From contig CAWJQC010000003.1 of NCBI GenBank assembly GCA_963844965.1, positions 1 to 34,664 of the forward strand: DNA of 34,664 nt, in the 5' to 3' direction. This DNA comes from an uncultured bacterium. Lineage in GTDB: Bacteria > Patescibacteriota > Minisyncoccia > UBA6257 > 2-01-FULL-56-20. Position numbers and translations under genes: made by a program. Below the pieces are notes generated by a model. That model searched no databases. It had not been told where the DNA came from and was given only the letters and a program-made list of their open reading frames with translations. Positions 4,717-27,500 of this stretch are shown piece after piece; the stretch's first letter is position 1, and each line of letters begins with the position of its first letter.

Positions 4717-5479
4717 GTTTCTTTTTCTTCTCCCTCGCTTCTTTCAGAATTTTTTCTATCATCTCGTCGGTTTCTTTCTCAGCTTCTTTTTCTTTCGTCA
4801 AAATTTTCCTCAGCTTCTGTTCCCGCGGTTCGAAAATCGCGCCGTTTGCTTCATGCTCCGCTCTCACTGCTCTTATCTGCATGTCCAGAAGATAATTGGT
4901 TTGGTTGATAAGACAGATAAGGCAGTTTGCCGCCTCTTCGGGATTTTCAAGATAGGTCTTATAGGTCGTATAGGACTTATCAATCCTATCAATCCTATCA
5001 GTCCTATCAGTCCTATCAATCCTATCAGTCCTATCAGTCCTATCCGTCCTATCCGTCCTATCCGTCTTATAAACCAATTGCCGAACCGCAAGCGCCCTCG
5101 GGTTGTCCTTCTTCCAGATTTGGAAATTCCGCTGGCGCAGAAAATCGGAGTAATCTTCCAGCAGTTCTTCAAAGGAAGCCCGCGCGACGCCGAGAAGAAA
5201 AATTTCGGTTTTCGGCGAGTTCTTTCCGGCGGCTGCGCCCTCTACGATGTTTTGTTTTCCTGAACGTGCCGCCTGCATCATCTGGTCGCTTTGGCGCGTA
5301 AAATGATAAGTCGTATAGGTCTTATATGTCCTATCCGACCTATCCGTCTCATCGGTCTTATCCGACTTATCGAACCCGGACCCGCGGGGTTCAACGTACC
5401 GGCGGCAAAACTCCGCGGTCATGTCGCAAATTACGGTTGCCTGTTCGTAGGATTTCAAATTTTTGTAAGTGGGCGGCAT
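4706..5479 (-). CDS. Four-helix-bundle protein (PF05635-like, '23S rRNA intervening sequence protein' family) carrying two in-frame tandem-repeat insertions.
   Basis: The core reads 'QMMQAARSGKQNIVEGAAAGKNSPKTEIFLLGVARASFEELLEDY' and matches the 4HB motif 'QL.RS..S...NI.EG..R.S..EF..FL.IA.GS..E'. A 9-bp repeat GTCCTATCA x10 is translated in frame as TDRTDRTDR. Start is placed at Met33 (5479) because upstream codons lie inside a repeat array. Confidence 0.5.
   Translation of the reverse strand: MPPTYKNLKSYEQATVICDMTAEFCRRYVEPRGSGFDKSDKTDETDRSDRTYKTYTTYHFTRQSDQMMQAARSGKQNIVEGAAAGKNSPKTEIFLLGVARASFEELLEDYSDFLRQRNFQIWKKDNPRALAVRQLVYKTDRTDRTDRTDRTDRIDRTDRTDRIDRIDKSYTTYKTYLENPEEAANCLICLINQTNYLLDMQIRAVRAEHEANGAIFEPREQKLRKILTKEKEAEKETDEMIEKILKEAREKKKKQDL
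4953..5073. repeat. Tandem array of about 13 units of 9 bp (GTCCTATCA / GTCCTATCC / ATCCTATCA) plus TATAGGTC units, inside the 4HB ORF.
   Basis: Seen directly. Period 9, so the reading frame is preserved. Confidence 0.85.
5306..5376. repeat. Tandem 8-9 bp units (TATAGGTC / CTATCCGAC family), array 3, inside the 4HB ORF.
   Basis: Seen directly. Confidence 0.75.
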
Positions 5480-5500
5480 CGTTTCGGTTTTGGTTTTTTT

Positions 5501-5561
5501 ATGCGTCCCATGCGTCTTATAGGTCCTATAAGACCTATACGTCTTATAAGTCGTATAGTAG
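5501..5561. repeat. Tandem 8-9 bp units (ATGCGTCC / TATAGGTC / TATAAGAC), array 4.
   Basis: Seen directly. Confidence 0.75.
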
Positions 5562-5606
5562 ACCCGCCGGTACAACTTATCAACATCTCCAAAAACAACG
5601 GAGCAG

Positions 5607-5615
5607 TGTTAGAAT
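5607..5615 (+). promoter_or_regulatory. TGTTAGAAT extended -10-like element (one of 4 identical copies in the window).
   Basis: Exact 9-mer TGnTAnAAT upstream of the 5735 gene. The same 9-mer occurs at 9270, 9568 and 27544, each upstream of a + strand gene. Confidence 0.35.
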
Positions 5616-5654
5616 TAGAGAAAGCGGGCATCGCGGCCCGAGGTTTTTGGTATT

Positions 5655-5720
5655 AAGTCCTATGCGTCCTATAAGTTCTATTGGCCTTATAAGTCCTATG
5701 CGTCCTATAAGACCTATAAA
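5655..5720. repeat. Tandem 8-9 bp units (TCCTATGCG / TCCTATAAG), array 5.
   Basis: Seen directly. Confidence 0.75.
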
Positions 5721-5734
5721 AAACCGTTCGCATT

Positions 5735-8700: not shown

Positions 8701-8999
8701 ACGCCGGAAATTCTTCCACGACACTTCAGATTTATGCGTCGCAGGTTTTGACTTCCGGCACGAGCACAATACCGGCGGCCTACCAGCACTATGCGACTTC
8801 TTCCTTCACCTTTGGCGGCAACGAGCAGCAGCTTACGACAAGCACGAACCCCGCCTTCGTTCCCGGATTTGTACTCACCGTTCCCACGAGCACGGCTTCG
8901 GTCCAAAAATTGACATACTGGGGCGCTGGCACGCCGGCCGGCCAGGCGGGCGGCAGTTATCAGGGCACGACTATGTTCGCGGCAGGGTTTTCACAATAG
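5735..8999 (+). CDS. Large secreted surface protein. It has an N-terminal signal anchor, an Ig/FN-like module, about 20 Kelch-like propeller repeats and the shared roughly 240-aa C-terminal domain. It needs two -1 frame changes near 8617 and 8677.
   Basis: ORF 5735-9058 runs into out-of-frame low-complexity text after 'SAINVT'. The conserved C-terminal sequence continues in the other two frames as 'GATSSVINYGALSQNANTGL' and then in ORF 8676-8999 as 'NQTTTVQNAGNSSTTLQIY...WGAGTPAGQAGGSYQGTTMFAAGFSQ*'. These match the C-termini of the 12570 and 16027 genes. Confidence 0.65.
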
Positions 9000-9002
9000 T
9001 TA

Positions 9003-9236
9003 CAAAGTCAAAATTCAAAAGGCAAAAGTCAAAAGTTAAAGTAAAAAATCAAAAATGAAATACTTTTTACATTTGACATGCAATTTTGACCTTTGAGTTT
9101 TAACTTTTGACATTATCTGAGCTGACTTTTGATTTTTGCCTTTTGACCCCGAGCCCTGCGTACTGAAACAAGAACGCGACGACTTTTGACATTTGACCTA
9201 TACTTTTGACTTTTGAATTTTGCCTTTTGACCTTAA
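9003..9236. repeat. Inverted arrays of the 8-mer GTCAAAAG / CTTTTGAC. There are about 6 units on the + arm (9003-9060) and about 10 on the - arm (9066-9236).
   Basis: Seen directly. A large imperfect palindrome centred near 9062, with no gene inside. Confidence 0.75.
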
Positions 9237-9361
9237 TTACCCTTGTGTATAAAAAAAACAGGTGAGTGGTGTTAGAATTATAAAAAGGGGAGGGCGTTCC
9301 CTCGGTTTTTGTTAGAAAGAGTTCGGCGGTTCCATGTTCTATGTTACATGCTTCATGTTAT

Positions 9362-9466
9362 ATGAATAAGAGAATTACATTCAGTTTGCTGATTTTTGCG
9401 GTAATTATGATTGGCGGTTTTTTGTTCGCGCCGAAGGCGCAGGCGGCGATTTCATTCGTGATATAA
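9362..9466 (+). CDS. Possible 34-aa peptide that is essentially a signal peptide (MNKRITFSLLIFAVIMIGGFLFAPKAQAAISFVI).
   Basis: ATG followed by a hydrophobic core and an AQA motif. It could be an N-terminal remnant of a surface-protein gene. Confidence 0.2.
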   Translation: MNKRITFSLLIFAVIMIGGFLFAPKAQAAISFVI

Positions 9467-9674: not shown

Positions 9675-10349
9675 GTGAACAAAACAACGGGCAGAATAAA
9701 AGAAATTGCGCGGAACAAAAAGGCAAAAATCGGGCTCTTAATCTGCGCCGTGATTGCGGCAATATTATCCGGCTACCTCATAGTCAAAGCTCTCTCGTTT
9801 GTTGATAATTTCACCACCACCAATTACGTGTCAAGCGTGTGGCACACGCAAGTGGCGACTTCTTCGGGCGTTGCCGAATTGCAGGCGAAAACTTGCAATA
9901 CTATTTCCACCTCAACCTGGTTTTGCTCCGCCACTTCCACCTCCATATGTTTGAACGACCTTGGCGACGGCGACTACATTATAGTTGCCCAAGCCGATAG
10001 CGGCCACCTGGCGTGGAAAAATGACGATACTGCCTGCTCTCGGCCGCAATGCGAGCAAGACGGCCCAGTGGACGGAAACAATCTGGTTGCCGACAACACG
10101 GTAAATTTCAGCGATTACGCGGCGCGGGCTGCCTGCCAAGCGATTGGCGGCCGTTTGCCGACGCGAAACGAATTGGGGTGCTTGTACAACAACTCATCAA
10201 CGTTCGGCGGTAACTTTGCTGCGGACTTCTACTGGTCTTCTGCCGAGGACGATGCCGCGGACGCCTACTACGTGTATTTCGCGAATGGCGGCGTGAGCAG
10301 CTACGGCAAGACCTACGCCTACTACGTCCGCTGCGTCCAAGGGTGGTAA
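9675..10349 (+). CDS. DGR target protein. It has an N-terminal membrane anchor, a Cys-rich region and a C-terminal DUF1566/FGE-like (C-type-lectin fold) domain that carries the variable repeat.
   Basis: GTG start. The C-terminus reads '...LPTRNELGCLYNN...FAADFYWSSAEDDAADAYYVYFANGGVSSYGKTYAYYVRCVQGW*', the classic DUF1566-type ending. Its last 128 nt align to the TR with A-only mismatches. Confidence 0.8.
   Translation: MNKTTGRIKEIARNKKAKIGLLICAVIAAILSGYLIVKALSFVDNFTTTNYVSSVWHTQVATSSGVAELQAKTCNTISTSTWFCSATSTSICLNDLGDGDYIIVAQADSGHLAWKNDDTACSRPQCEQDGPVDGNNLVADNTVNFSDYAARAACQAIGGRLPTRNELGCLYNNSSTFGGNFAADFYWSSAEDDAADAYYVYFANGGVSSYGKTYAYYVRCVQGW
10215..10342 (+). other. DGR variable repeat (VR).
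   Basis: 128 nt, colinear with the TR at 11061-11188 with no indels. There are 14 mismatches, all at positions where the TR has A (TR AAC codons read as TTC, GAC, TAC, AGC or GGC in the VR). A shared GC-rich 3' end 'cgtccgctgcgtccaagg' could be the IMH (initiation of mutagenic homing) element. Confidence 0.85.
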
Positions 10350-10392
10350 GATTTGGAATTTGGGCATTTGAGGATTTGTGGATTGGGTTGTA

Positions 10393-10460
10393 GTTGGTAG
10401 CTTGTAGCTGGTAGGTAGTAGGGAATTCCTACAAGCTAAAAAGCTACAAGCTAAAAAGCT
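10393..10460. repeat. Hairpin-forming repeat (GTAGCTTGTAGCTGGTAGG ... CTACAAGCTAAAAAGCTACAAGCTAAAAAG) on the left flank of the 4HB gene.
   Basis: 'agcttgtag' and 'ctacaagct' are reverse complements around gaattc. A similar copy sits on the right flank. Confidence 0.7.
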
Positions 10461-10462
10461 GA

Positions 10463-10825
10463 ATGAAAATAAATTCATATACAGACCTGATTGTTTGGCA
10501 AAAAGCAGTTGATTTAGTTGTGGAAGTTTATAATCTGACTGAGAAATTTTCCAAAAGCGAACTTTTTGGTCTAACTTCACAAATGAGACGGGCAGCAGTT
10601 TCTATTCCGTCTAATATTGCCGAGGGCAGGAGGAGAGGAACAAGAAAAGATTTTTGCCATTTTTTGGTTATCGCTTTTGGTTCAGGAGGAGAATTGGAAA
10701 CCCAAATAATAATTGCCAAGAAACTAAACTTTATAAAAATAGGCGAGTATTCAAAGGTCGATTTGTTATTAGACGAGGTTATGCGCATATTGAACGTCAT
10801 GATTCATAACCTGCAGGTTCATTAG
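10463..10825 (+). CDS. Four-helix-bundle protein (PF05635 / '23S rRNA IVS protein' family).
   Basis: 'DLIVWQKAVDLVVEVYNLTEKFSKSELFGLTSQMRRAAVSIPSNIAEG...ELETQIIIAKKL' is a near-consensus member. Confidence 0.8.
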   Translation: MKINSYTDLIVWQKAVDLVVEVYNLTEKFSKSELFGLTSQMRRAAVSIPSNIAEGRRRGTRKDFCHFLVIAFGSGGELETQIIIAKKLNFIKIGEYSKVDLLLDEVMRILNVMIHNLQVH

Positions 10826-10885
10826 CTGGTAGGTCGTAGCCTGTAGGAATTTACAAGCTAAAAAGCTACTAGCTACAAACTAATT
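10826..10885. repeat. Right-flank copy of the GGTAGG...CTACAAGCTAAAAAGCTAC hairpin repeat.
   Basis: ctggtaggtcgtagcctgtaggaatttacaagctaaaaagctactagctacaaac. Confidence 0.7.
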
Positions 10886-11060
10886 CGGCCGGAGTCTTTA
10901 ATCACGCAGCGGCTCAAGCCGCGCGGGTTAAAGAGAGTTTGCTGATATAAACCACGATTTCGCCGCCCCGTTAGGGAGCTGTGAATGTTGGGCTAAACTA
11001 ACAGGGCATTGTTGGCAAGCAGCTGTTTTACGGCTGCTGAGACAGTCCAGCGCGAAATAT

Positions 11061-11188
11061 TTTGCTGCGGACAACTACTGGTCTTCTGCCGAGAACGATG
11101 CCGCGAACGCCTACAACGTGAATTTCACGAATGGCGGCGTGAACAACAACAACAAGACCAACGCCAACTACGTCCGCTGCGTCCAAGG
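11061..11188 (+). other. DGR template repeat (TR).
   Basis: AAC-rich (reads as AADNYWSSAENDAANAYNVNFTNGGVNNNNKTNANYVRCVQG*). Every difference from the VR is at a TR adenine. Confidence 0.85.
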
Positions 11189-11227
11189 TTGATTTATAAA
11201 AGCGAAAATCGCCGATATTTCAAAAAA

Positions 11228-11584
11228 ATGCGCAACACCGAGCGATTGCCTCTTTATCACAAGACATACGGACTAATCAAGCATTTATACGGCGTGATCA
11301 GGAGCTTTCCCAAGGAATATAAATATTCTATGGGGAGCGAAATCATGAATCTTTCGTGGAAATGCCTTGACCTTATTATTGAAGCGAACGCCTACCCCAA
11401 TGCTCAAAAGAGCGTGAAAGTCGCCGAATTAAGCGCGGCATACGATAAATTAAAAATGCGGCTGCGGATGAGCCAGGAAATCAACCTGACATCAGCCGGC
11501 CAATTCGCTCATCTTGAAGAAAATTACATGCTGGAAATAGGGAAAATGATTGGCGGCTGGAAAAAATGGGCGGGGGCAGAATAA
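11228..11584 (+). CDS. avd: Avd (DGR accessory variability determinant).
   Basis: About 118 aa, placed between TR and RT. It matches the bAvd pattern (Y..L..L..V.R.FPK.YKY..G..I....W.CLDLII.A...K.......LS...D.L...LR......I......H.E...LEIGKMIGGWKK) and has the C-terminal GGW motif. Confidence 0.7.
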   Translation: MRNTERLPLYHKTYGLIKHLYGVIRSFPKEYKYSMGSEIMNLSWKCLDLIIEANAYPNAQKSVKVAELSAAYDKLKMRLRMSQEINLTSAGQFAHLEENYMLEIGKMIGGWKKWAGAE

Positions 11585-11620
11585 ATTTCTAATTTCTAAT
11601 TGACCTAATTGATTTAAATA
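11584..11620. repeat. Left inverted-repeat arm (aatttctaatttctaattgacctaatt...) of a MITE-like element.
   Basis: Its reverse complement recurs at 11863-11900. The same family, without cargo, is at 28797-28887. Confidence 0.65.
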
Positions 11621-11833
11621 ATGTTCAATTCCAAAATCCCAAACAAAGATAAATATGATTTGGAAGAAAGAACCGCAAAATTCGGCGAAGAAGTTATCAG
11701 ATTTTGCCAAGAATTGCCCCAAAATGAAATAACCAGACCGATAATAAATCAGCTGATAAAATGCGCAAAATTATGGGTTGAAGCCAAAGAGTTAAATCTG
11801 ATTTTCAACGCAATCAACAATAAATTGAAATGA
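11621..11833 (+). CDS. Truncated 4HB-family gene fragment (N-terminal two-thirds only).
   Basis: 'YDLEERTAKFGEEVIRFCQELPQNEITRPIINQLI' matches the 'FDLEERL..FA..II.L...LPK......I..QL.RS' N-terminus of 4HB proteins. It lacks the C-terminal helices. Confidence 0.4.
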   Translation: MFNSKIPNKDKYDLEERTAKFGEEVIRFCQELPQNEITRPIINQLIKCAKLWVEAKELNLIFNAINNKLK

Positions 11834-11862
11834 CGCTTTTGGTTATTGGGATTTAGGATTTA

Positions 11863-11900
11863 TTTAGGTCAATTAGAGCAATTAGAATAATTAGAAATTA
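11863..11900. repeat. Right inverted-repeat arm (tttaggtcaattagagcaattagaataattagaaatta).
   Basis: Its reverse complement matches the left arm at 11584-11620. Confidence 0.65.
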
Positions 11901-11903
11901 CCC

Positions 11904-13040
11904 ATGGCCATCTTCACCTATGAAAACCTGTATCGCGCGTATCTTGACTGCCGGCGCAATAAAAGAAAAACGATTAACGCGCTGAAATTTGAGATTGATT
12001 TAGAAAAGAATTTGTCTTTACTGCTTGAAGAATTAACGAGCCGTCGATACCAGCCAGGCCGCTCGATTTGTTCGTGGTCAAATATCCCCAGCCGCGGGAA
12101 ATATTCGCGGCTGATTTCCGCGACAGGATAGTGCACCATCTGCTGGTCGGCCAAATTCTGGCCGAAAGCGAAAAAAGCTTTTTTTACAACAGTTTCGCTT
12201 GCCGCAAAGGAAAAGGTACGCACAAGGCGGTCGGACTTTTGAGAAGATACCTGAAAAGCGCTTCCAGAAGCGGAAAAGAGAAAATATTTTACCTGCAATT
12301 GGATATCGGAAGTTTTTTCGTGTCAATCCGGCACCGCGTTTTATTTTCCATTTTCAGCGAATTTGTCGGCAAATTGAACCGGACCGAAGAATGGAAACAA
12401 GAAATTTTATGGCTGGCTGAAAAAATCATTTTTTACGAACCAGCCAAAAATTGCGAAATAAGAGGCGATAAGAGCTTGCTCGCGCTGATACCGCCGCACA
12501 AGTCGCTTTTTAACGCGCCGCCAGAACGGACTGCCGATTGGCAATTACACCTCGCAATTTTTCGCCAATATGTATCTGAACCGATTGGATTATTTCACCA
12601 AGCAGACGCTTAAGGAAAAATTTTATATCAGATATGTTGACGACATTGTGATTTTAGGAAAAAGCGCCGGCGCGCTTAAAGGTCTGATTCCCGAAATTAA
12701 CAGGTTTTTGAAAAAAGAATTGGAGATTGAACTGAATCTTGACAAGATCAAGTTCAAAAACGTTTCGGCGGGCATAGATTTTCTGGGCTATTTTGTGAAG
12801 CCGGATTACACGCTTGTCCGCCGCCGGGTGGTTAAGAATTGCAAGGAAAAAATCCGCCCTGCCCCCGAAGTTTCGAAAAAATTGGTCTCGCAAGCCAATT
12901 CTTATCTGGGGCATTTTATCCACGCCGCGAGCTACGGATTGAGAAAAATGATTTCAGAGAGGTTAATCAAAGCGGACAATTCTATACATTTTAGCAATGG
13001 CTATAAATCGATATTCGCAATAATTGGCGGGCAAAGAAAA
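11904..13040 (+). CDS. DGR-type reverse transcriptase. It is frameshifted (frame 0, then +2 near 12065, then back to 0 near 12520) and read through in frame into the downstream surface-protein gene.
   Basis: It carries these DGR-RT motifs:
- 'YQPGRSI / FVVKYPQPREIFAADFRDRIVHHLL'
- 'SFACRKGKGTHKAV'
- 'IFYLQLDIGSFF'
- 'GLPIGNYTSQFFANMYLNRLDYF' (found in frame 0)
- 'YIRYVDDIVILG' (the YxDD box)
- C-terminal 'SQANSYLGHFIHAASYGLRKMI'. Confidence 0.8.
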
Positions 13041-14975
13041 ATAATCAAAACGGCGGTTGCCGCGGCAGTTCTGCTCGCGGGCTTTTCGTTTGCTCATTCC
13101 GCCTCCGCCGCTTATTTCAAGACCGGCTCTTTGGTTTCCGCTAACCTCTTGGACGGCTTGACCAACGTCGGCGCGATTACCCAATTTAACGCCACAACTT
13201 CCATCGCGGCGGGCACTTCGGTAAGCGTCCAATTTTCCCGCAATAAACTTACCTGGTACAGCGCCTCCGGCACGGCGTTCGCCACAAGTTCGCTTTCGGA
13301 CGGCGCGAACAGCATTGACTTGTCGGCGTTGGGGTGGACCGGCCCGATTTTTTATTACAAGCTGCAATTCGCGACGAATGATTCAAGCATCACTCCGACT
13401 GTATCGGGCGTGGCCGTGAATTACAATTACAGCTCCGGACCGACGTACGAGTATTTCGGGCAAGGGTCTTTGGTTTCCGCCAATGTGCTTGACGGTCATA
13501 CGGACGTCGGCGCAATTACCGGATTTTCCGCTTCAACTACCGTGCCGGCCAGCACGACAATAACAGTCCAGTTTTCGCGCGACAAATTGGTTTGGTACAA
13601 CCATTCCGGCGTGGCGTACGCCGAAGACAGCTTGTCCAACGGCTCCAATGTCGTTAATTTGTCCGCTTTGAATTGGACCGGTCCGCTGATTTATTATAAA
13701 TTGCATTTTACCACAAGCGATGTCGGCCAGACGGCGGCTATTTCATCGGCCGAGATTGATTATTCAGCCGGTTCCGGCTCGGTATATTTCAAGCAAGGAA
13801 CATTGGTTTCAACAAATCTTTTGGCTGGCGGAGGGACGCTTAGCGGAAACGAATTGTTCGGCTATAACATTTCTTCTTTGCCTTCTGGAACAACGGTTCA
13901 GGTCCAATTCAGCACCAGTAGCGCCAATTGGTTCAGTTCCACTGGCACCGCTTGGGCGTGGGACACCTTGTCCAGCGGCAGCCACCTTACCGCTTCAACC
14001 GCGATTAACTTGTCCGCGCTTGGCTGGACCGGCGCCAGTTTTTATTACAAATTAGAATTCACAACGACTGATGCCGGCACAACTCCGACAGTCGCTCAAA
14101 TATCGCTCTTTACGCCGGGAGCGCTGCCCATCGTTACGGTTCTGATGACGGTCGTCTCAAGCAGCGCTCCCATCGTATCCGCCGTATCGGTGAACGGCGG
14201 CAATTCCATCACGCTCACGCCCGCGACAACGACCCCGATCAGCGTCAATTTCACGGTTACGGATTATTCCGGCTGTTCAAACGTTTTCACGAGCGGCAAC
14301 GTTACGACCACGCTTTACCGCATGGGCGTCGGGAGTTCGTGCGTGGCGGACAACCGCAACTGCTACAGGACTTCCTCGCAAACCAACAATTGCTCGGGCA
14401 GCGGTGCCAACGCCACGGCAACTTTGAATCTTTACTATTTCGCCGATTCCACCGGCAGCCAATCGCCGACCTCAAGTTATCCATCCGACCACTGGCAGGC
14501 CTATGTGCAGGCGCTGGACGGGACGGCGAACGCCACGGGCACCGCCACGTCAACCGTGAACGACGTTAATGTCTTGACGGCCATCACCGTTACAACTTCT
14601 TCCATCAACTACGGCACGATGTCGCCGAATGCGACGACCTCGGCCGCGAGCGACCAGCTCGCGACCGTGCAGAACGTCGGCAATTCGTCCACGACTTTGA
14701 AAATTTCCGGCACGGCGCTCGTAATGTCCTCGCCTTACGACGCGTTCGCAACGTCCAGCCAGCATTACGCCACATCCACTTTCCAGTGGAACGCCAGCGG
14801 CCCGGAGCAGCAACTTCAGCAAACACAAACAACGGTTCCGGGATTTTCTCTGACTACCCCCACCTCCACGAGTGCCGTGAGCGGTAACACTTATCGGGGC
14901 GTGCAAATTCCCGGCAGCGCGCAAAGCGGCGTGCACGTGGGGATGATAACGTTCAGCTCAAATTGGAGCCAATAA
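13041..14975 (+). CDS. Secreted surface protein with three tandem repeats of about 100 aa and the shared C-terminal domain. The start is uncertain because there is no canonical in-frame start codon.
   Basis: A signal-peptide-like 'KIIKTAVAAAVLLAGFSFAHSASA' is followed by three units of 'YFKxGSLVSxNLLDG...VQFS..KL.WY..SG.A.....LS.GSN...LSAL.WTGP..YYKL.FTT.D'. The tail is 'VSAVSVNGGN...DNRNCY...LYYFADSTGSQSPTSSYP...TVQNVGNSSTTL...QHYATSTF...WSQ*'. Confidence 0.55.
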   Translation: MIKTAVAAAVLLAGFSFAHSASAAYFKTGSLVSANLLDGLTNVGAITQFNATTSIAAGTSVSVQFSRNKLTWYSASGTAFATSSLSDGANSIDLSALGWTGPIFYYKLQFATNDSSITPTVSGVAVNYNYSSGPTYEYFGQGSLVSANVLDGHTDVGAITGFSASTTVPASTTITVQFSRDKLVWYNHSGVAYAEDSLSNGSNVVNLSALNWTGPLIYYKLHFTTSDVGQTAAISSAEIDYSAGSGSVYFKQGTLVSTNLLAGGGTLSGNELFGYNISSLPSGTTVQVQFSTSSANWFSSTGTAWAWDTLSSGSHLTASTAINLSALGWTGASFYYKLEFTTTDAGTTPTVAQISLFTPGALPIVTVLMTVVSSSAPIVSAVSVNGGNSITLTPATTTPISVNFTVTDYSGCSNVFTSGNVTTTLYRMGVGSSCVADNRNCYRTSSQTNNCSGSGANATATLNLYYFADSTGSQSPTSSYPSDHWQAYVQALDGTANATGTATSTVNDVNVLTAITVTTSSINYGTMSPNATTSAASDQLATVQNVGNSSTTLKISGTALVMSSPYDAFATSSQHYATSTFQWNASGPEQQLQQTQTTVPGFSLTTPTSTSAVSGNTYRGVQIPGSAQSGVHVGMITFSSNWSQ

Positions 14976-14983: not shown

Positions 14984-15036
14984 TTAACGACATCGTAAGT
15001 CATTAATTAATAATTAACGATGTCGTAAGTCGTTAA
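14984..15036. repeat. Two REP-like palindromes (TTAACGACATCGTAAGTCATTAA and TTAACGATGTCGTAAGTCGTTAA) between convergent genes.
   Basis: Seen directly. They are the same family as the hairpin at 4631-4657 and the palindrome at 15752-15774. Confidence 0.75.
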
Positions 15037-15722
15037 TCGAGCGAAACGTTTTTGACCTCTTCTATTTCAATATCCTTAAGCCACTGTTTTATATTTTTTT
15101 CGTATTCCGCGGGGCCGCCGAAAAATTTCATAAGAAATTCTCTATTAGTAACCGACGGAAAATTTTTCTTGCCGAGATAATCAAGGTGGCTTGACCAGCG
15201 GTAATTATCCAAGAATTTCATCGCTTCTCTATGGTTCTTGATCTCGCGTTCGCGCCATTCCGGCGCCGCGAGGTCCAGCGGGTTCACGTGTATGTAATAG
15301 GGGATATGGTTGAAATGCGATTCGTTCTTTATCACCATGGATTTGTACCTGCCTTCAAATAACGTCCCCTTCCTTTCGTATTTCTGATTGAAATATTTTG
15401 CGTATCCCACGTTGATTTTTTTCATAAACGCCGTGATAGCTCCATCCGTGCGCGGGGAAAGAAGGAGATGATAGTGGTTGGGCATTAGACAAAACGCGTA
15501 TATATCAACCAAGAGTTTTCTTGGTTCTCTTGGCTTTGATTTGCCGCCAATATAACGACTTGCGACATCGTTAGATTGGTTGAATCTATAAAAAGCGTTA
15601 TTTACCCTGTTTTGGTCGTTAAATTCAAAAAGATCGTGGATAAACCTCAAATAATCCTGTTTATCAAGGAAGATTTTGCGTTTATCCACGCCCCTGTTCA
15701 GTGTGTGGTAGACATCAGCCAT
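15033..15722 (-). CDS. REP-associated tyrosine transposase (RAYT), a Y1 HUH transposase of the IS200 type.
   Basis: HuH motif 'CLMPNHYHLLL', then 'GAITAFMKKINVGYAKYFNQKYERKGTLFEGRYKS', then 'YYIHVNPL'. REP-like palindromes flank it on both sides. Confidence 0.7.
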   Translation of the reverse strand: MADVYHTLNRGVDKRKIFLDKQDYLRFIHDLFEFNDQNRVNNAFYRFNQSNDVASRYIGGKSKPREPRKLLVDIYAFCLMPNHYHLLLSPRTDGAITAFMKKINVGYAKYFNQKYERKGTLFEGRYKSMVIKNESHFNHIPYYIHVNPLDLAAPEWREREIKNHREAMKFLDNYRWSSHLDYLGKKNFPSVTNREFLMKFFGGPAEYEKNIKQWLKDIEIEEVKNVSLD

Positions 15723-15868: not shown

Positions 15869-16956
15869 ATGAACAAAAGCAACTCAGGTCTGACTCAAAT
15901 CGGCAAGGTTTTGCTCGTAGGGGTCGTCATCCTCGGGGTTTTTGGCTTTTTCTCAACTTTTCTCGGAGGCATCGGCGGTTTTCCGAGCAGGCAATCGGGT
16001 TCACCGGGGGAAACTGGATTCTCGGTTTGGGTTTCTTCGGCATTAATGTGGCTAACGCCACGGACACAACCAATACTCCCACAAGCACGGTCACCGTCGG
16101 AAACTCCGCCCCGACAGTTAGCGGCATAAAACTGAACAACAACAGCGATATCATTCTCACCGTCAACGCCACGACGGCGGTCGTCCTGAACTACACCGTA
16201 GCCGACAACAACGGCTGCTCCGACATCAACACGAACGCAATGACCTCCACATTGTTCGTGGCGAGCTCCTCGCCGTTCGTCGTTTGTAATTCCACATATC
16301 CGACGACAAGCAGCGTCTATTGCTACCTGTACTCTTCGCGAACAACGAGCAGCTGCAGCGGAAGTTCCTACAACGTCTCCGACACTTTCTGGCTTTATTA
16401 TTACGCCGCCGGCACGGGCAACGCCTCGGCGACCGACGGGTCATCCAGCTTTTGGGACGCCCACATAGTTGCGGTTGACAAGTCCTTAGCAACAGGCGAT
16501 GGGACCTCTTCCAACCAAAACGTCACCACTCTCATCGGGCTCACCGTCACGACCTCCACCATCAACTATGGCACCATGGCGGGCGGCGCCACCTCAAGCG
16601 TCGCGAACATCCTGACCCAAATCGCCACCACGACCAACGCCGGCAACGCGACGACATCCCTCAAACTTTCATCGCTGATAGATCTGTACAGCAGCGGCAC
16701 CGGCCAAGTCATCTCTTCAACCTACCAGCACTACTCCACATCGTCCTTCACTTACGGCGGCAACGAGCAGCAGCTTCAGGGGTCGTCAACGCCGCAGCTC
16801 GTCACCGGCTTAACGCTTTGGGTTGTGACGAGCACCGCGAGCGGCGCTTCAAGCAGCAAGGCGACCTGGTGGGGACTTCAGGCTCCCAGCGTGGCAACCG
16901 GCACTTACAACGGCCTCGTTACTTTCTCGTCGGTATGGACGGGAACGCAACAATAA
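15869..16956 (+). CDS. Small secreted protein with a long signal anchor and the shared C-terminal domain. It has one frameshift in a G5 homopolymer at 16006-16010.
   Basis: ORF 15869-16129 and ORF 16027-16956 join cleanly if one G is added: '...SGSPGGNWILGLGFFGINVANA|TDTTNTPTSTVTVGNSAPTVSGIKLNNNSD...'. The tail is 'QHYSTSSFTYGGNEQQL...VTFSSVWTGTQQ*'. Confidence 0.6.
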
Positions 16957-17003
16957 CAAAAAATCAGTTAACCATCTTGACAAAAAATCAGTTAACCATC
17001 TTG
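16957..17003 (+). repeat. Direct repeat of 2 x 24 bp (CAAAAAATCAGTTAACCATCTTGA).
   Basis: Seen directly, immediately after the stop at 16954-16956. Confidence 0.7.
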
Positions 17004-17023
17004 AGGAGTTAACAAACTGTGAA

Positions 17024-17139: not shown

Positions 17140-17242
17140 AAAAAGCACGGAATTTGTTCATTAACTGATTAGCGAATTGCGGATTAAAGGTCAATTTTAA
17201 TTTATTAATACGTTAATCCGTTAGTTTATCCGTTAACCGATA

Positions 17243-18146: not shown

Positions 18147-18167
18147 TTTGTTAGTTTTTTGTTTTTT

Positions 18168-18237
18168 ATTAACGAGTTAACGAGTTAACGGGTTTTTTGT
18201 TATTTTTATAACTCGTTAACCCTTTAACTCGTTAACT
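18168..18237. repeat. GTTAAC-based palindromic repeats (TTAACGAGTTAACGAGTTAACGGG ... AACTCGTTAACCCTTTAACTCGTTAAC).
   Basis: Inverted copies that could form a terminator-like hairpin. The family recurs at 20720-20888, 21541-21612, 23915-23975 and 27419-27500. Confidence 0.7.
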
Positions 18238-18355
18238 GACTAATAAAATAATTTTTTAAGTAAAGTTAACTCCCTAACTCGTATTTTTAATTAGCGTATA
18301 AAGGAGCACGGATTGGTGGTAAAATTAGGAAAAATATCTCAAAGAACGTAACGGA

Positions 18356-19330
18356 ATGAAATTGCGAAATAAAACTTTTTTGCCGTCGCTCGTCGCATTT
18401 GCGCCAGCTTTTTCTATTTTCTATTTTCTATTTTCTATTTTCTACCCGGTATACGCGGACAATAGCGTCAACGTCAGCACGACATTTGTTTTGGCTCCGA
18501 CAACGATCGTTCTCACCCAAAACTCGTACAGATGGTATGACAATATAGATGCCCTGACCCCCAGTAATCCGCTTACCGCTGGGGAAAGTTCTCCGACCTC
18601 AACGCCGGCAGGCGGGACAGTCCTGCGTTTGCGGATGAACATAGTGGACAGCGGCCTTGGCATTGGCGCCGGAGCAACCTTCAAGCTTCAATACGCGAAT
18701 TCCACATCTGGAAGCTGGACCGATATCAGCACGTCCACCGCTTGGGTTCTTTACGATAATCCCTCGGTTGCCGATGGGCAGGTAATAGTCACGACAGTTT
18801 TGGCTAGTTCTAACATGGGGGAAAGTTACTGTGAGTCAAATCCGACTGCGGCAATGCCAAGCCCGATACTCCAGGGGCAAAGCGGGGAGTGGGATTGGGT
18901 GGTCGCCAATAATTACGCCGACACGGCGAGCAACTGGTTTTTCCGGATGGTCTATTCTTCAAGCACGGAGCTTGATAACTATTCTGGCTATCCGGAATTA
19001 ACCGCGGTGGTGCCTCCATCCCCGCCGACGCCGCCCGCTCCGTCCGGCGGAGGGGGCGGGGGAGTAGTGGGCGTGGGGGCTGGTCAAACATTGTTGCCAA
19101 GCCAGCCCGCGACCACGACGCCGTACCTGCCGATTCCGCCGCCCTTCGTCCCGCCCGCAATGCAGTGCATTGACTATAACGGCGACAACCGCGTTGACAT
19201 GATTGACCTATCCATTCTGCTCTATCATTACGGCGAAACCGGCCCGGATATCGGCTGTTTTGATTTGAATCACGACGGCATTGTGGATTTCCCGGATATT
19301 TCCATTCTGATGTATTATTGGACTTCGTAA
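18356..19330 (+). CDS. Secreted protein with a jelly-roll-like central domain, a Pro/Gly-rich linker and a C-terminal dockerin-like domain of 2 EF-hand-like repeats.
   Basis: Signal peptide. Dockerin pattern 'CIDYNGDNRVDMIDLSILLYHYG...CFDLNHDGIVDFPDISILMYYW'. The central domain (RLRMNIV...FKLQYANSTSGSW...NWFFRMV) is homologous to the protein encoded at 3-480 of this window. Confidence 0.55.
   Translation: MKLRNKTFLPSLVAFAPAFSIFYFLFSIFYPVYADNSVNVSTTFVLAPTTIVLTQNSYRWYDNIDALTPSNPLTAGESSPTSTPAGGTVLRLRMNIVDSGLGIGAGATFKLQYANSTSGSWTDISTSTAWVLYDNPSVADGQVIVTTVLASSNMGESYCESNPTAAMPSPILQGQSGEWDWVVANNYADTASNWFFRMVYSSSTELDNYSGYPELTAVVPPSPPTPPAPSGGGGGGVVGVGAGQTLLPSQPATTTPYLPIPPPFVPPAMQCIDYNGDNRVDMIDLSILLYHYGETGPDIGCFDLNHDGIVDFPDISILMYYWTS
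18410..18444 (+). repeat. Heptanucleotide repeat TTTTCTA x5 inside the signal-peptide coding region.
   Basis: Seen directly. It encodes FSIFYFLFSIFY. A 7-bp unit is not a multiple of 3. Confidence 0.85.
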
Positions 19331-19332
19331 TA

Positions 19333-19393
19333 ATCCGCTAATCAACGCTAACAAACATAATCCGCTAATAGACGCTAATCATAAGACGCTAAT
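19333..19393. repeat. About 5 units of CGCTAAT(C/A)A immediately upstream of the GxxExxY gene.
   Basis: Seen directly. Confidence 0.65.
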
Positions 19394-19807
19394 ATGAAAA
19401 AAATTATAGAAGATCTAATTTATAAAGATTTGTCTTTCAAAATACATGGCGCGGCTATTGAAGTGCGTAGGGATTTTGGAGCAGGGCATAAAGAGAAGTT
19501 ATACCAACAGGCTCTTGCCGCAGAATTAGACAGGCGCGGTATAAAATTTGAAAGAGAGAAAGCCATCAAAATTTATTCGCCAAAAGATGGCAAGTTTGTC
19601 GGCCTCTATCGGCCAGATTTTGTCGTGGAAAACAAGATAATTGTTGAAACAAAAGTAGAAACATTTGTGAGACAGGATGAAATAAAAAGAATATATGATT
19701 ATTTGAGGAATAGTGAGTACGAGCTTGCTTATCTGGTCAATTTTGCTTCGCCGCAACTATACGTAAGAAGGATAGTTTATACAAATAAATATAAATCAAA
19801 AATCGGT
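19394..19807 (+). CDS. GxxExxY protein (PD-(D/E)XK nuclease superfamily). It has no stop codon of its own and runs in frame into the next gene.
   Basis: 'DLIYKDLSFKIHGAAIEVRRDFGAGHKEKLYQQAL...YRPDFVVENKIIVETKV...YLVNF' contains G-HK-E-KL-Y, the family signature. It is related to the ORF at 24870-25313. Confidence 0.6.
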
Positions 19808-20695
19808 ATGAAAATTGCAATACTATTCTTGGCGTCTATTGGCTTATTATTAGCGGATATTAGCGGCGTACGGGCCGCTTCGCAGTCGCTTTATTTCTCG
19901 GCGCCTTCGGGAACCATCGCCGTCGGAAGCGAATTTCCGGTCAAAATACTGATCGATTCCGACCAGCCGCTTAACGCCTATGTCGTGACTTTTTCCTACG
20001 ATCCGGGCGTGCTCACGATTGTGGGTTTTGACAACGGCAAGTCAATCATAGATGTTTGGCAGGGGCAGCCGGCCGTTTCCGAAAACGGTTCCGTCGGCTT
20101 GCGCGGCGGCAGCGTCACCCCGTTCAGCGGGAAAGGCGGTAACATCATTACCGTCAATTTCCGGGCGGTGGGAGAAGGAGAGCCGATGCTCGCGTTCGGC
20201 AACTCATCGTTTTATATGGCGAACGGCAAAGGCACGAAAGTTGTTCCGCAAACCGCCGATCTGAAGTTTCAAATTCTTTCGGCCGGCGCCGTCACTTCAA
20301 CACTTCCGGTTTACGAGGAGGCATCGGATATCGCGCCGCCGACCATAAAATATCTGTCTCTCGTCCAGGATCCGTTCAACAGCGGGCAAAAACTTCTGAG
20401 CTTTATGGTTTCGGATCCCGACTCCGGTATCAGGGAGACTCTGGTGCGTACGCGTTCACTCCTCCTCTGGAGCGACTGGATTCCGGCGCAAAACCCGACC
20501 GCGATTCCATTATCCGCCTGGTCCATCGGCTTCAGAGCCATTGATAACAGAGGAAATATTTCGGAAAGAACGCTTTACAACTTTTCGGCGTTTTTGCGTC
20601 CCGAAGCGTTGGGCGTCGCGGCGCTCTTCATTATATTTTTAGTTATCATCGGCTTTATTATAGTAAAGATTAAAAAAGGTCGTTCCGTATCATAG
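19808..20695 (+). CDS. Secreted protein with a cohesin-like N-terminal domain and a C-terminal TM anchor.
   Basis: ATG at 19808 is followed by the signal peptide 'MKIAILFLASIGLLLADISGVRA'. The motif 'AYVVTFSYDPGVLTIVGF' resembles the cohesin 'F.YDP.VL' core. The C-terminus 'LGVAALFIIFLVIIGFIIVKIKK' is a membrane anchor. Confidence 0.45.
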   Translation: MKIAILFLASIGLLLADISGVRAASQSLYFSAPSGTIAVGSEFPVKILIDSDQPLNAYVVTFSYDPGVLTIVGFDNGKSIIDVWQGQPAVSENGSVGLRGGSVTPFSGKGGNIITVNFRAVGEGEPMLAFGNSSFYMANGKGTKVVPQTADLKFQILSAGAVTSTLPVYEEASDIAPPTIKYLSLVQDPFNSGQKLLSFMVSDPDSGIRETLVRTRSLLLWSDWIPAQNPTAIPLSAWSIGFRAIDNRGNISERTLYNFSAFLRPEALGVAALFIIFLVIIGFIIVKIKKGRSVS

Positions 20696-20719: not shown

Positions 20720-20888
20720 GTTAACGAGTTAACTTCTTTTCTTAACCGGTTGGTCGGTTATTGCGGTTAACGAGTTCGCGAGTTAACGAGTTAAAATCCA
20801 AACCCGTTAACTCGTTAACACGTTAACTCGCCAACTACATAACTGTTTGTTCGATAAATTAAACTCGTTAACACGTTAACTCGTTAAT
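20720..20888. repeat. Cluster of GTTAACGAGTTAAC-type palindromic repeats, about 10 units in both orientations.
   Basis: Seen directly. Fills the whole intergenic region upstream of sodA. Confidence 0.75.
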
Positions 20889-20914: not shown

Positions 20915-21538
20915 ATGAAATTCGAATTACCAAAGTTGCCGTACGCATATGACGCGCTTGAGCCATTTATAGATGCGCGAACAATGGAGCTGCACCATGC
21001 CAAACATCATCAGACCTATGTTACCAAGCTAAACGAAGCCATGGCGAAGCATCCCGAACTGGAAACGCCGAGTTTGGAAAAATTGCTTCAGTCGCTGGAT
21101 AGCGTTCCCGCAGATATTCGCACTGCCGTGCGGAATCACGGTGGCGGCCACTATAACCACTCGTTTTTCTGGAGGGTGATGGCGCCGCATTCCGAAAAAA
21201 GCGATAAGCCGCAAAACGGCGGACTTGCCGAAAAAATCGAAAAAACATTCGGCAGCTTCGCAAAATTCAAAGAAACTTTCAGTTCGGCAGCCGCCGGCGT
21301 TTTCGGCAGCGGCTGGGCGTGGCTCGTTTCCGATCCATCGGGTAAATTATCTATCACGACAACGCTGAATCAAGATAGCCCGATCGTGAGCGGCCTCAAG
21401 CCATTGCTTTGTCTTGACGTCTGGGAACACGCCTATTACCTGAAATATCAAAACCGCAGGTCCGAGTACATTGAAGCGTGGTGGAGTGTCGTGAACTGGG
21501 AACAGGTTAATAAGAACCTTAACGAATTAATCGATTAA
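20915..21538 (+). CDS. sodA: Fe/Mn superoxide dismutase.
   Basis: '[29 protein letters not shown]', 'GSGWAWL' and '[15 protein letters not shown]...VVNW' are hallmark SOD motifs. Confidence 0.9.
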
Positions 21539-21540
21539 AG

Positions 21541-21612
21541 AGTTAACGAGTTCACGAGTTAACGGGTTAAAATATCAAACAACTCGTTAACACGTTAATA
21601 AACAACCCGTTA
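21541..21612. repeat. GTTAACGAG palindromic repeats downstream of sodA.
   Basis: agttaacgagttcacgagttaacgggtt ... aactcgttaacacgttaat ... cccgttaattcattaacg. Confidence 0.7.
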
Positions 21613-21683
21613 ATTCATTAACGTGGCCACTTGTTTGGATTGGACAGATTATGGCTTGTTCACAGCAAGAGCGGCGCCCTTAG

Positions 21684-23898: not shown

Positions 23899-23914
23899 CC
23901 GAACTAATTAAAGG

Positions 23915-23975
23915 ATTAACGGATTAACGCATTAACGGATAATAATTCGTTAATTCGCAATTCGTTAATAAGAAA
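23915..23975. repeat. ATTAACGGATTAACGCATTAACGG / TTCGTTAATTCGCAATTCGTTAAT inverted repeats.
   Basis: Seen directly between convergent genes. Confidence 0.65.
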
Positions 23976-23994
23976 TTAGTCAATCCGTGCTGGC

Positions 23995-24855
23995 TTAAAG
24001 TGATTTTGGGCGTCCGCCTTCCTCTTGTATTATTTTGAGCGCAAGTTTACCGTTTTGGATTTCAGCTTCCAGAAGCTTGATTCGTTTCCCGTTTTTCATT
24101 GTCCAAACGCCGGGCTCAGGGTTCAGCGCCCGGATCCTCCTTTCAATTGCCGCAACTTTTTCCGAACTCGCGCCATTCACGGCCTCGTTGAGGTCGCTTT
24201 CGGCGACGAAGGCGTCGGCTGTCGCAAATTTTTTCGTGTATGTCGCTTCCGCCTCATTCTGTGGTCGTGGCTTGATCTCTCCCGCCAGGAATTTTGGCAG
24301 TGTTTCAACCAGCAGGTTGCCACCCAATTCTGCCAGTTTTTCAAGGAGAGTTGGAAATTGGAAATTGGAAATTGGAAATTCCAATTCTCGCTGCGCGAGA
24401 ATTGGCCCATGGTCAACTTTTTCGTCCAAAATATACAACGTGACGCCGGTTTCTTTATCGCCCTCCAGTATGGCGGTTTGGATAGGGGATGAACCGCGGT
24501 GTTTGGGAAGGAGCGACGGATGGACGCCCACCACGCTGCGCGGAAAAGCGGCGATTATTTCCGCGGGGATTATCTTGGCGTAGGCGGCGACAACCGCGAA
24601 GTCCGGTTTGGAAATTGGTAATTGGTAATTGGAAATTGACAAAACTTCCGGCTGCAATATCGGAATGTTATATTTTTGCGCCAAAAGTTTCGTGGGTGGC
24701 GGCGTTATGATTTCCTTCCTCCCGACTGGTCGGTCGGGATTGCAAACCACGGCCGCAGGCGGCATTCCGGCGTCAGTCAGCTTTTGCAAAATTATAGCGG
24801 CAAATTCGGGTGTGCCGAAGAATACGAAATTGGGCTTACGAAAATACGAAATCAT
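23995..24855 (-). CDS. fmt: Methionyl-tRNA formyltransferase.
   Basis: 'FFGTPEFA', 'VVCNPDRPVGRK', 'HPSLLPKHRGSSPIQTAILEGDKETGVTLY' and 'KLAELGGNLL'. The N-terminal 9 aa and two internal 7-aa stretches are encoded by tandem 7-mer arrays. Confidence 0.85.
   Translation of the reverse strand: MISYFRKPNFVFFGTPEFAAIILQKLTDAGMPPAAVVCNPDRPVGRKEIITPPPTKLLAQKYNIPILQPEVLSISNYQLPISKPDFAVVAAYAKIIPAEIIAAFPRSVVGVHPSLLPKHRGSSPIQTAILEGDKETGVTLYILDEKVDHGPILAQRELEFPISNFQFPTLLEKLAELGGNLLVETLPKFLAGEIKPRPQNEAEATYTKKFATADAFVAESDLNEAVNGASSEKVAAIERRIRALNPEPGVWTMKNGKRIKLLEAEIQNGKLALKIIQEEGGRPKSL
24353..24380. repeat. GGAAATT x4 inside fmt.
   Basis: Seen directly. Translated as 'PISNFQFP' on the - strand. Confidence 0.85.
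24610..24637. repeat. GGAAATT-GGTAATT-GGTAATT-GGAAATT inside fmt.
   Basis: Seen directly. Translated as 'SISNYQLPIS'. Confidence 0.85.
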
Positions 24856-27418: not shown

Positions 27419-27500
27419 GCGGGTTAACGCGTTTAAAGAGTTAACGAGTTTAGAAATTCACAACCCGTTAACGCATTAACTCGTTAACTATATAATCGGT
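27419..27500. repeat. GGTTAACGCG ... GTTAACGAG ... CCCGTTAACGCATTAACTCGTTAAC palindromic repeats.
   Basis: Seen directly. Confidence 0.7.

Follow-up and report, generated by a model that had tools for sequence, protein, structure and literature searches.

The opa genes of Neisseria carry CTCTT pentamer repeats in their signal-peptide coding region, in tracts that are longer than the one described here, variable between paralogues and strains, and commonly out of frame. A different arrangement of repeats is known from the intervening sequences (IVS) of 23S rRNA of the Leptospira and Salmonella type, in which an IVP open reading frame (ORF) lies between inverted repeats that are processed by RNase III. 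Organisms of the Candidate Phyla Radiation (CPR) live attached to other cells, and their surface proteins therefore matter.

Phase variation of Opa is listed in a review (PMC11868660). The neuO gene of E. coli K1 carries the heptanucleotide repeat AAGACTC in its 5' coding region; over 64 genomes the tract ranges from 3 to 53 repeats and 65.6% of the genomes are OFF, and alleles of 20, 21 and 22 units were found mixed in one culture (PMC13001214). The tracts of the hmw genes comprise 13-38 units (PMC2651432). Heptamer SSR families whose function is unexplained are over-represented in bacteria, including the cyanobacterial STRR and GGGGAYT families and the GGGAATC family of Xanthomonas (PMC4692102). 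Furthermore, TAACTGA repeats, which have been proposed to be sites of translational regulators, occur in Beggiatoaceae, Cyanobacteria and Bacteroidetes (PMC4679880). Our literature search found no paper that links CPR with SSR phase variation.

The Array and Its Host Gene

The window (the whole stretch of 34,664 nucleotides that was analysed) contains a gene for a secreted dockerin protein, and the signal-peptide codons of this gene include five units of TTTTCTA without a single mismatch (Table 1). The program TRF recovers this array at period 7, with 5.0 copies and 100% matches. The array begins in codon 19 and encodes FSIFYFLFSIFY. The protein itself begins with MKLRNKTFLPSLVAFAPAFSIFYFLFSIFYPVYA, followed after the predicted cleavage point by DNSVNV. 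Its predicted signal peptide is composed of a basic n-region (MKLRNK), a long hydrophobic core (the h-region, residues 7-30, half of which is encoded by the array) and a c-region (PVYA, with a VYA cleavage-type motif) that precedes DNS.

The gene product has the features of a dockerin protein: a dockerin module, cohesin neighbours, and an N-terminal signal peptide recognised by its sequence features alone. The C-terminal module gives weak matches to the solved dockerin chains 2y3n_B (E 0.006), 2jnk_A and 5lxv_B. Cohesin domains are encoded in the next gene downstream and in the next-but-two gene; of the two Cohesin matches, one scores 36.1 bits for a cut-off of 24.1 and the other 23.3 bits, just below that cut-off. 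The protein has 88 homologues, whose source names, Liptonbacteria and Parcubacteria among them, assign the organism to Parcubacteria/Liptonbacteria; its family comprises about 80 CPR/Parcubacteria proteins. NCBIfam holds no family matching the dockerin protein or the products of its two upstream genes.

Two further elements lie upstream of the gene. The arms of an intergenic hairpin (18164-18194 and 18218-18248) are 87% complementary to each other, and a short uORF preceded by AAGGAG ends 4 nt before the ATG at 18356. This uORF may be a coupling leader, as judged from its sequence and placement.

TRF returned 60 rows for the window, with periods mostly of 7, 8 and 9, and inverted array pairs are present in the window. 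In 50 shuffles of the window there were zero runs of at least 12 self-matches at any period from 3 to 12; the real window has three such runs, all of period 7. A chance origin of the array is excluded by these shuffles, and the expectation of the 21-mer search was 0.01 matches. The two other pure period-7 runs of the window are found only in fmt, an intact gene of a def-fmt operon.

Table 1. Coordinates of the array, its host gene and related features in the window and in genomes of relatives (L numbers).
Sequence	Feature	Position	Strand	Description and basis
Window	(TTTTCTA)x5 heptanucleotide array	18410..18444	+	codons 19-30 of dockerin gene; direct read and TRF
Window	Dockerin gene	18356..19330	+	secreted protein, 324 aa, dockerin C-terminal; ORF list, Pfam match
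Window	Predicted signal peptide	18356..18457	+	34 aa; sequence features and alignment, cleavage judged by eye
Window	Dockerin_1 module	19172..19312	+	residues 273-319; 23.4 bits vs Pfam cut-off 22.9, just above
Window	TTG, +1 frame, candidate start	18399..18401	+	reads into mature protein (MRQLFLFSIFY...PVYADNS) at 3, 6 or 9 units
Window	Intergenic hairpin	18164..18248	.	inverted TTAACGAG 8-mer arrays between upstream gene and dockerin gene; TRF and inverted-pair comparison
Window	AAGGAG and uORF	18301..18351	+	AAGGAG (18301-18306), then 12 codons (TTG 18313 to TAA 18351); direct sequence read
Window	Left arm of PDDEXK_3 bracket	19362..19385	+	CGCTAAT-type array downstream of dockerin gene; 24 nt, 88% complementary to 19843-19866
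Window	Right arm of PDDEXK_3 bracket	19843..19866	+	ATTAGCG x2, in signal-peptide codons (LLADISG) of cohesin gene, ATG 19808
Window	PDDEXK_3 ORF	19394..20695	+	PDDEXK_3 in residues 12-126; in frame, stop-free, into signal peptide and cohesin protein (ATG 19808)
Window	Array pair around IVP gene (10463-10825)	10382-10414 and 10863-10884		
Window	fmt array 1	24351..24380	-	(AATTTCC)x4.3, perfect; encodes EFPISNFQFPT; TRF
Window	fmt array 2	24608..24638	-	CCAATTW units; encodes SISNYQLPISK; TRF
L001	Cassette arms	6984-7012 and 7410-7438		units ACAAGGG and YTTGTTG; right arm in cohesin signal peptide
L001	Second pair	3049-3132 and 3550-3591		other unit
L002	Array pair	1124-1151 and 1564-1591		other unit
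L058	Cassette arms	276-306 and 692-725		
L090	Cassette arms	3580-3644 and 4019-4061		
L129	Cassette arms	3608-3639 and 4062-4093		

Unit Number and Reading Frame

Alleles generated in silico from the ATG at 18356 yielded the full dockerin protein at 2, 5 or 8 units only. Those with 4 or 7 units ended after 61 or 68 aa, and those with 3, 6 or 9 units after 31, 38 or 45 aa. The locus has the anatomy of an SSR contingency locus: a tract without mismatches, built of a unit that three does not divide, in which a change of one unit abolishes the product. An initial annotation had described a perfect five-unit heptamer in the hydrophobic core of the signal peptide of a surface dockerin protein, at which the gain or loss of one unit would shift the frame, and had suggested checking whether only some copy numbers keep the ORF open. 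The direct read, TRF, the simulated alleles (31-68 aa at other unit numbers) and the Pfam matches to the protein and its adjoining cohesin genes bear out each element of this anatomical description.

A TTG codon in the +1 frame is a candidate start that in principle would restore a shorter signal peptide at 3, 6 or 9 units. Direct inspection of the sequence upstream of this TTG revealed no Shine-Dalgarno sequence.

This anatomy is what would be expected of a true contingency locus, at which slipped-strand mispairing would be frequent and reversible, five units would be on and four or six off, and the cell surface would be diversified as it is by opa or neuO. The tract lies 18 codons past the start, the loss or gain of one unit truncates the product to 38-61 aa, and what the gene encodes is a secreted protein that mediates interactions and has genes for cohesin partners adjacent to its own. 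The signal peptides of neighbouring surface genes also contain heptamers, with YTTGTTG x4 in one relative (L001) and TTTTCTA in four others (L058, L068, L090 and L106).

Conservation among Orthologues

The array is present in only four of the approximately 80 family members, the window protein and the orthologues in L001, L002 and L003, which are 70%, 59% and 58% identical to it at protein level. Taking the five perfect units of the window as reference, L001 has two perfect and three decayed units (TTTTCTA TTTTCTA TTTTCTG CTTTCCA CTTTCTA), L002 has four perfect units and ATTTCTA, and L003 has four perfect units and AATTCTA. In all four the array occupies five unit-lengths, is in frame, and precedes the cleavage motif at an identical position. 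Note that this is a small sample of four different species, not strains, with proteins 58-70% identical.

A neighbour-joining tree placed the window, L001 and L002 in one clade, with L003 in a neighbouring clade. The first clade also holds P0003, a protein with a true signal peptide that lacks the array, which implies that the array was lost in this lineage. We considered P0003 as an N-terminally truncated OFF allele and rejected it, because its start is mis-called and there is no array. The conserved LTQ..YRWY motif is reached 4-10 residues later in array-bearing proteins than in array-free homologues, indicating that the array lengthened the h-region. The signal peptides of the remaining 84 homologues showed no 7-residue periodicity.

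Comparison of the window with L002 revealed 34 of 36 identical nucleotides in the array, against 64% in the mature region (P 2e-5), 44% at the third positions of the mature region and 54% in the preceding signal-peptide codons. Similarly, L002 and L003 share 28 of 30 nucleotides of the array, against 59% in the flanks (P 3e-5). In L001 the changes within the array are both synonymous and non-synonymous, which points to a constraint on the DNA and not on the peptide. Conservation of the array thus greatly exceeds that of its flanks, which speaks for either homogenisation or selection.

Exact-protein look-ups with the dockerin protein and those of two neighbouring genes turned up no further contig. 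When metagenome contigs were scanned for three units with a YxWY motif 70-100 nt further on, one unrelated AT-rich match emerged, from a collection that evidently contains none of the known positives. In a same-species check, a protein with a degenerate signal-peptide array (P0099) and its array-free neighbour (P0083) were each found on six contigs, with no hidden variant, the array being too far decayed to say much about switching.

Distribution of TTTTCTA Arrays

The TTTTCTA unit contains no stop codon in any sense frame and a TAG in every antisense frame, and all three sense frames of the array encode the same cyclic peptide, FSIFYFL. Consequently, coding arrays survive only in the sense orientation and only in hydrophobic segments. 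A frame-blind DNA scan for (TTTTCTA)x3 across 185,579 species genomes recovered at least 120 loci; arrays of three or more units occur in at least 120 species genomes of many phyla, including Bacteroidota, CPR and Acidobacteriota. Among the matches listed, about 28 of 126 arrays are coding. Nearly all of these lie 2-31 codons past a start or in membrane segments, so that many proteins without relation to one another carry them in a signal peptide or a membrane helix, and none of the approximately 28 among the matches listed is out of frame. Three arrays proposed as OFF alleles (L023, L112 and L114) were rejected when they proved to be intergenic or located in a 5'-UTR. A fixed module length was also rejected, array lengths being broadly spread over the 126 instances among the matches listed. 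Other arrays among these matches lie 4-11 nt before the start codons of rpsM, rlmH, a bioA-like gene and other genes, with no clear bias in orientation. Together with the many 7-9 nt arrays of the window, including intergenic inverted pairs, the presence of TTTTCTA in distant lineages places the array among the short-unit SSR families.

Arrays of this kind are also found in housekeeping genes. The fmt genes of L001 and L127 carry arrays at the same two sites as the fmt gene of the window but with different units, one of which is the reverse complement of the window's. Among other CPR genomes, the prepilin peptidase genes of two species (L013 and L118) share the site of a TTTTCTA array, and an FtsQ-like gene has one in L076. 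The array type is therefore a property of the lineage and not a mark of contingency genes; it is not restricted to dispensable, environment-facing genes, and it is implausible that fmt, the prepilin peptidase or the FtsQ-like gene would be switched off. With short-unit arrays everywhere, including essential genes, contingency loci of this lineage are poorly predicted from the anatomy of a repeat alone.

These comparisons bear directly on the contingency reading. The initial annotation had proposed a phase-variation switch, and had named uniform copy number, in deep read data and in related strains, as the observation that would refute it. At the species level copy number is uniform, and no difference in tract length was seen among the four orthologues (58-70% identical). 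The frame-blind DNA scan found the four dockerin-gene arrays and the four cohesin-gene arrays all in frame, as are the approximately 28 coding arrays listed; OFF alleles number zero of eight in the dockerin and cohesin genes, and zero among the protein homologues. In neuO, by contrast, repeat numbers vary widely and close to two thirds of genomes are OFF (PMC13001214). Five units is also short beside hmw (PMC2651432) or neuO, and the arrays of fmt, the prepilin peptidase and the FtsQ-like gene are equally pure. The purity of the tract in comparison with its diverged flanks and the homogenised variant unit of L129 (see below) nevertheless argue that units do turn over. Overall, the anatomical part of the proposal stands (a perfect, frame-shifting tract in the signal-peptide core of a dockerin protein), the comparative evidence leans against a switch function, and we regard a true contingency locus as unlikely, though by no means negligible.

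Array-Bracketed ORF Cassettes

Relatives of the window contain TTTTCTA-type arrays in a second setting. In L129, L090 and L058, a small ORF of the 23S_rRNA_IVP family lies between the dockerin and cohesin genes. A left arm of (TAGAAAA/TAGAAAG)n is located directly past the dockerin stop, and a right arm, approximately 390-430 nt downstream, falls within the signal-peptide codons of the cohesin gene, as (TTTTCTA)x4.9 or, in L129, as (CTTTCTA)x4. The closing stems predicted for such cassette arms (long-range RNA, arms of about 30 nt) gave z-scores of -3.25 and -4.33. In L127 there is no cassette, and a decayed orphan array lies in the cohesin signal peptide.

The cohesin genes provide a further view of how these arrays evolve. 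TTTTCTA arrays are present in the signal peptides of the orthologues in L058, L068, L090 and L106. Those of L090 and L058 are identical at 36 of 36 nucleotides, against 39% in the flanks (P 2e-15), in genes whose proteins are 26% identical. In L129 the unit is changed to CTTTCTA throughout all four copies, a pattern that shows concerted evolution.

Comparable pairs with other units occur in L001, in L002 and in the window (Table 1). One window pair brackets a PDDEXK_3 ORF that is continuous with the cohesin gene, and PDDEXK_3-to-cohesin fusions are also found in P0092, P0093, P0098 and P0101. The right arm of this pair, located in the cohesin signal peptide, is the analogue within the window of the situation of the dockerin-gene array.

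The dockerin-gene array itself is unpaired. No inverted TAGAAAA-type partner was found on either strand of the window, and an inverted partner approximately 390-470 nt away that encloses an IVP or PDDEXK_3 ORF, as seen for the TTTTCTA-type arrays of L058, L090 and L129 and for the array at 19843-19866, is absent here. Upstream of the dockerin gene, neither a cassette nor a left arm is present in the window, in L001 or in L003 (the upstream sequence of L002 is too short to judge). A local RNA structure involving the array was rejected, since shuffled sequences fold better than the 5' region (z +1.41), and no Rfam family matched in the window.

A rival possibility is that the array is a cis element selected for its sequence, a (UUUUCUA)n tract of the mRNA or its DNA that would be bound by a protein or would pair in trans with the left-arm (UAGAAAR)n RNAs of cassettes. 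Such an element would tune translation, mRNA processing or targeting, and the fact that it is translated into a hydrophobic core would be incidental to, though compatible with, this role. Conservation at the nucleotide level, the mixed changes in L001 and the identity of arrays in two strongly diverged cohesin genes are consistent with it, as are the predicted long-range stems, in which the A/G-variable left arms are compatible with G-U pairing. The arrays just before the starts of rpsM, rlmH, the bioA-like gene and others resemble the TAACTGA repeats (PMC4679880); however, they lack an orientation bias. The poor local folding, the missing Rfam match and the missing partner within 34.6 kb also count against a cis element, and no binding factor is known. 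We find this reading distinctly unlikely.

A dual use of signal-peptide heptamers in CPR would combine these elements. The arrays would encode the hydrophobic core and at the same time form one arm of an RNA stem with (UAGAAAR)n that brackets IVS-type ORFs, coupling the expression of cohesin and dockerin genes to the presence of the cassette and the processing of its stem; the perfect array of the dockerin gene, lacking a partner, would act as a free arm, either pairing in trans or slipping. We consider this idea very unlikely.

Because the contig is a metagenome assembly, we also considered an artefact of assembly or sequencing, or a low-complexity run arising by chance. The probability of this is vanishingly small: the array's 35 nt lie well inside read length, shuffles yield no such runs, and the reading is already refuted by orthologous arrays in the same codons of independent assemblies from other samples.

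Origin and Maintenance of the Array

The explanation we prefer, and to which we give about an even chance, is that the array belongs to the short-unit tandem arrays (7-10 nt) that fill these Parcubacteria genomes, as a member that is translated and has no partner; it is not a demonstrated phase switch. It may have descended from a cassette arm, or have arisen in the way such arms do, and would now stand alone. A cassette arm, as suggested by the relatives, gives a different origin for arrays of this type in signal peptides. Given that cassette and left arm are both missing ahead of the gene in the three genomes listed above, we infer the orphan-arm origin and do not observe it.

In the ancestor of the clade of the window, L001 and L002, the array would have added approximately 21 nt (7 residues) to the h-region. 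It would have become fixed in the signal peptide because it is translatable there. The number of units probably stays at five for two reasons: the frame is open with 2, 5 or 8 units only, and the length of the h-region is constrained. Its purity may be maintained by homogenisation of units, through slippage or conversion. In principle the array is prone to slippage. Alleles of 4 or 6 units would abolish the dockerin protein, and a low rate of their formation is probable; given that the purity of the array points to turnover of units or to selection at the nucleotide level, such knock-out alleles are likely to occur occasionally.

One feature counts against this explanation: it is not obvious why an array without a partner should remain perfect. 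Its purity implies either ongoing slippage, which would yield frameshift alleles, or selection on DNA or RNA, and so leaves room for the rival readings.

Comparison with Known Systems

Should the array slip, CPR would have in the dockerin gene its first candidate for a phase-variable surface gene, and if the dual-use reading were true, it would represent the first contingency-type switch described in this group. Small ORFs of the IVP and PDDEXK_3 type that are bracketed by inverted tandem arrays, with the right arm forming part of the translated signal peptide of the following gene, constitute an apparently undescribed architecture, and this architecture may account for the recurrence of one heptamer among signal peptides that are not related.

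The closest parallel to the cassettes is with the intervening sequences of 23S rRNA, as the relatives have a 23S_rRNA_IVP-family ORF of approximately 115-125 codons enclosed in a predicted closing stem of about 25-30 bp. However, the cassettes lie between protein-coding genes and not in rRNA, and they have tandem arrays as arms, one of which is read as signal-peptide codons. The dockerin-gene array differs further in having neither partner nor cassette.

The array shares with the opa repeats a unit that is not a multiple of three, a location in the hydrophobic part of the signal peptide of a surface protein, and a shift of frame with a change of one unit. It differs in that it has five units, the same number in four species, and none was found out of frame among them. 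With neuO it shares a heptanucleotide in the 5' coding region, in which three units correspond to seven residues and a single class of unit numbers modulo 3 gives the full-length protein. The neuO product, however, is a cytoplasmic enzyme encoded on a prophage and the repeat is not in a signal peptide; neither the length range nor the OFF alleles of neuO are seen among the orthologues of the dockerin gene.

Like the heptamer SSR families, the TTTTCTA arrays are short, are built of 7-nt units and occupy many loci per genome, often as inverted pairs or just before start codons, with one unit common to distant phyla and essential genes among the neighbours. Those families are described as mainly intergenic, whereas the TTTTCTA array is translated and recurs in hydrophobic coding segments. 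By family, the array is closest to the heptamer SSRs (PMC4692102, PMC4679880); by design, it resembles opa and neuO.

Inverted tandem arrays and IVP cassettes

In several genomes, inverted tandem arrays lying 390-470 nt apart enclose small ORFs of the 23S_rRNA_IVP family, with an array unit that differs from cassette to cassette in the window and in the loci of other genomes. The two arms form a closing stem in the predicted fold of the cassette RNA (z -3.3 and -4.3), and the right, downstream arm frequently falls among the codons for the following gene's signal peptide. These IVP cassettes look like rRNA intervening sequence (IVS)-type cassettes sited between protein-coding genes.

Other parts of the window are also rich in arrays. 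About 1 kb (4649-5723) is packed with 9-mer arrays of TATAGGTCC, TATAAGACC and TATCAGTCC in up to 10 copies, arranged as mutually inverted blocks around and within a degenerate IVP-like ORF. Inverted AAAGTCA, TTTTGAC and GACTTTT arrays begin at the 3' end of a Kelch-repeat ORF; coding tandem repeats of 172 bp (1080-1618) match the Kelch-repeat genes at the window's left end. At the end of ORF 16027-16956, 24 bp are duplicated perfectly and in direct orientation (ACAAAAAATCAGTTAACCATCTTG x2, 16956-17004). The region 9675-14975, with its C-type-lectin-like candidate target protein and a reverse transcriptase split into two overlapping ORFs (12068-12613 and 12570-14975), is likely a diversity-generating retroelement.

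Coordinates of arrays, cassettes and genes in the window and in loci of other genomes (L numbers)
Feature	Location	Coordinates	Strand	Remarks
GTTAACGAG-family hairpins	window	17205-17235; 18154-18248; 20766-20887; 21519-21621; 23907-23977; 27462-27489		
IVP cassette	window	10382-10884		
IVP cassette	L129	3608-4093		
IVP cassette	L090	3580-4061		
IVP cassette	L058	276-725		
IVP cassettes, two	L001	6984-7438; 3049-3591		
IVP cassette	L002	1124-1591		
Degenerate IVP-like ORF	window	4706-5575	-	23S_rRNA_IVP, 21 bits, below cut-off
Kelch-repeat ORF	window	5735-9058		1107 aa
Heptamer arrays	window	9004-9231; 9329-9364		AAAGTCA x7.4, TTTTGAC x9, GACTTTT x7.4, then GTTCCAT array
Lcl_C	window	9675-10349		candidate target protein
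IVP gene	window	10463-10825		within candidate retroelement
bAvd	window	11009-11584		
IS200-like Y1 transposase ORF	window	15033-15722	-	
PDDEXK_3-cohesin ORF	window	19394-20695		signal peptide; cohesin ATG 19808
fmt	window	23995-24855	-	heptamer arrays 24351-24380, 24608-24638
fmt heptamer arrays	L001	10990-11020; 11231-11262		
TTTTCTA before start codon	L006	4313-4339		
TTTTCTA before start codon	L043	4972-4992		
TTTTCTA before start codon	L066	584-610		
TTTTCTA before start codon	L112	6817-6842		
TTTTCTA in prepilin peptidase	L013	7345-7370		same site in L118
TTTTCTA in prepilin peptidase	L118	7255-7289		second species
TTTTCTA in FtsQ-like protein	L076	3830-3859		
TTTTCTA in other membrane proteins	L015; L080; L119			

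Arrays within genes

Three genomes (the window, L001 and L127) have heptamer arrays in the housekeeping gene fmt, placed at the same two positions of the protein, with different units and no net length change in the Pfam domain. At the first site the window has CCAATTW and L001 its reverse complement, AAATTGG; at the second the units are AATTTCC, GTCAAGC and AGTGTCA, respectively. The pattern, as read from these sequences, is apparently one of unit replacement while the sites stay fixed.

The dockerin/cohesin cluster

Inverted arrays (CGCTAAT/ATTAGCG, 19362-19385 and 19843-19866) also lie on either side of a PDDEXK_3 ORF, which runs in frame into the signal peptide and cohesin protein downstream without an intervening stop; four further genomes share this fusion ORF (homologues P0092, P0093, P0098 and P0101). 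Inverted arrays of a single 8-mer family (GTTAACGAG with its variants) form hairpins behind the 3' ends of nearly all genes in the cluster. These hairpins might act as terminators, or be REP-like or uptake-signal-like elements.

The stretch before the dockerin gene (18301-18351) holds a good Shine-Dalgarno sequence, AAGGAG, followed by a 12-codon uORF. This uORF stops 4 nt upstream of the dockerin-gene ATG, for which no obvious Shine-Dalgarno sequence of its own was seen upstream, and may serve translational coupling.

TTTTCTA arrays in other genomes

In CPR genomes the TTTTCTA array encodes membrane-helix segments of several membrane proteins, among them prepilin peptidase and an FtsQ-like protein. 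Between the prepilin peptidases of two species the array is identical at 34 of 39 nt, as against 66% in the flanks. Among the matches listed, (TTTTCTA)n arrays also stop 4-11 nt 5' of housekeeping-gene start codons, for example those of rpsM and rlmH. A crude count revealed no orientation bias at these places, and some of the arrays fold with TAGAAAA into a short hairpin of which they are the right arm. In this position upstream of start codons, the TTTTCTA arrays are like the TAACTGA repeats of Beggiatoaceae.
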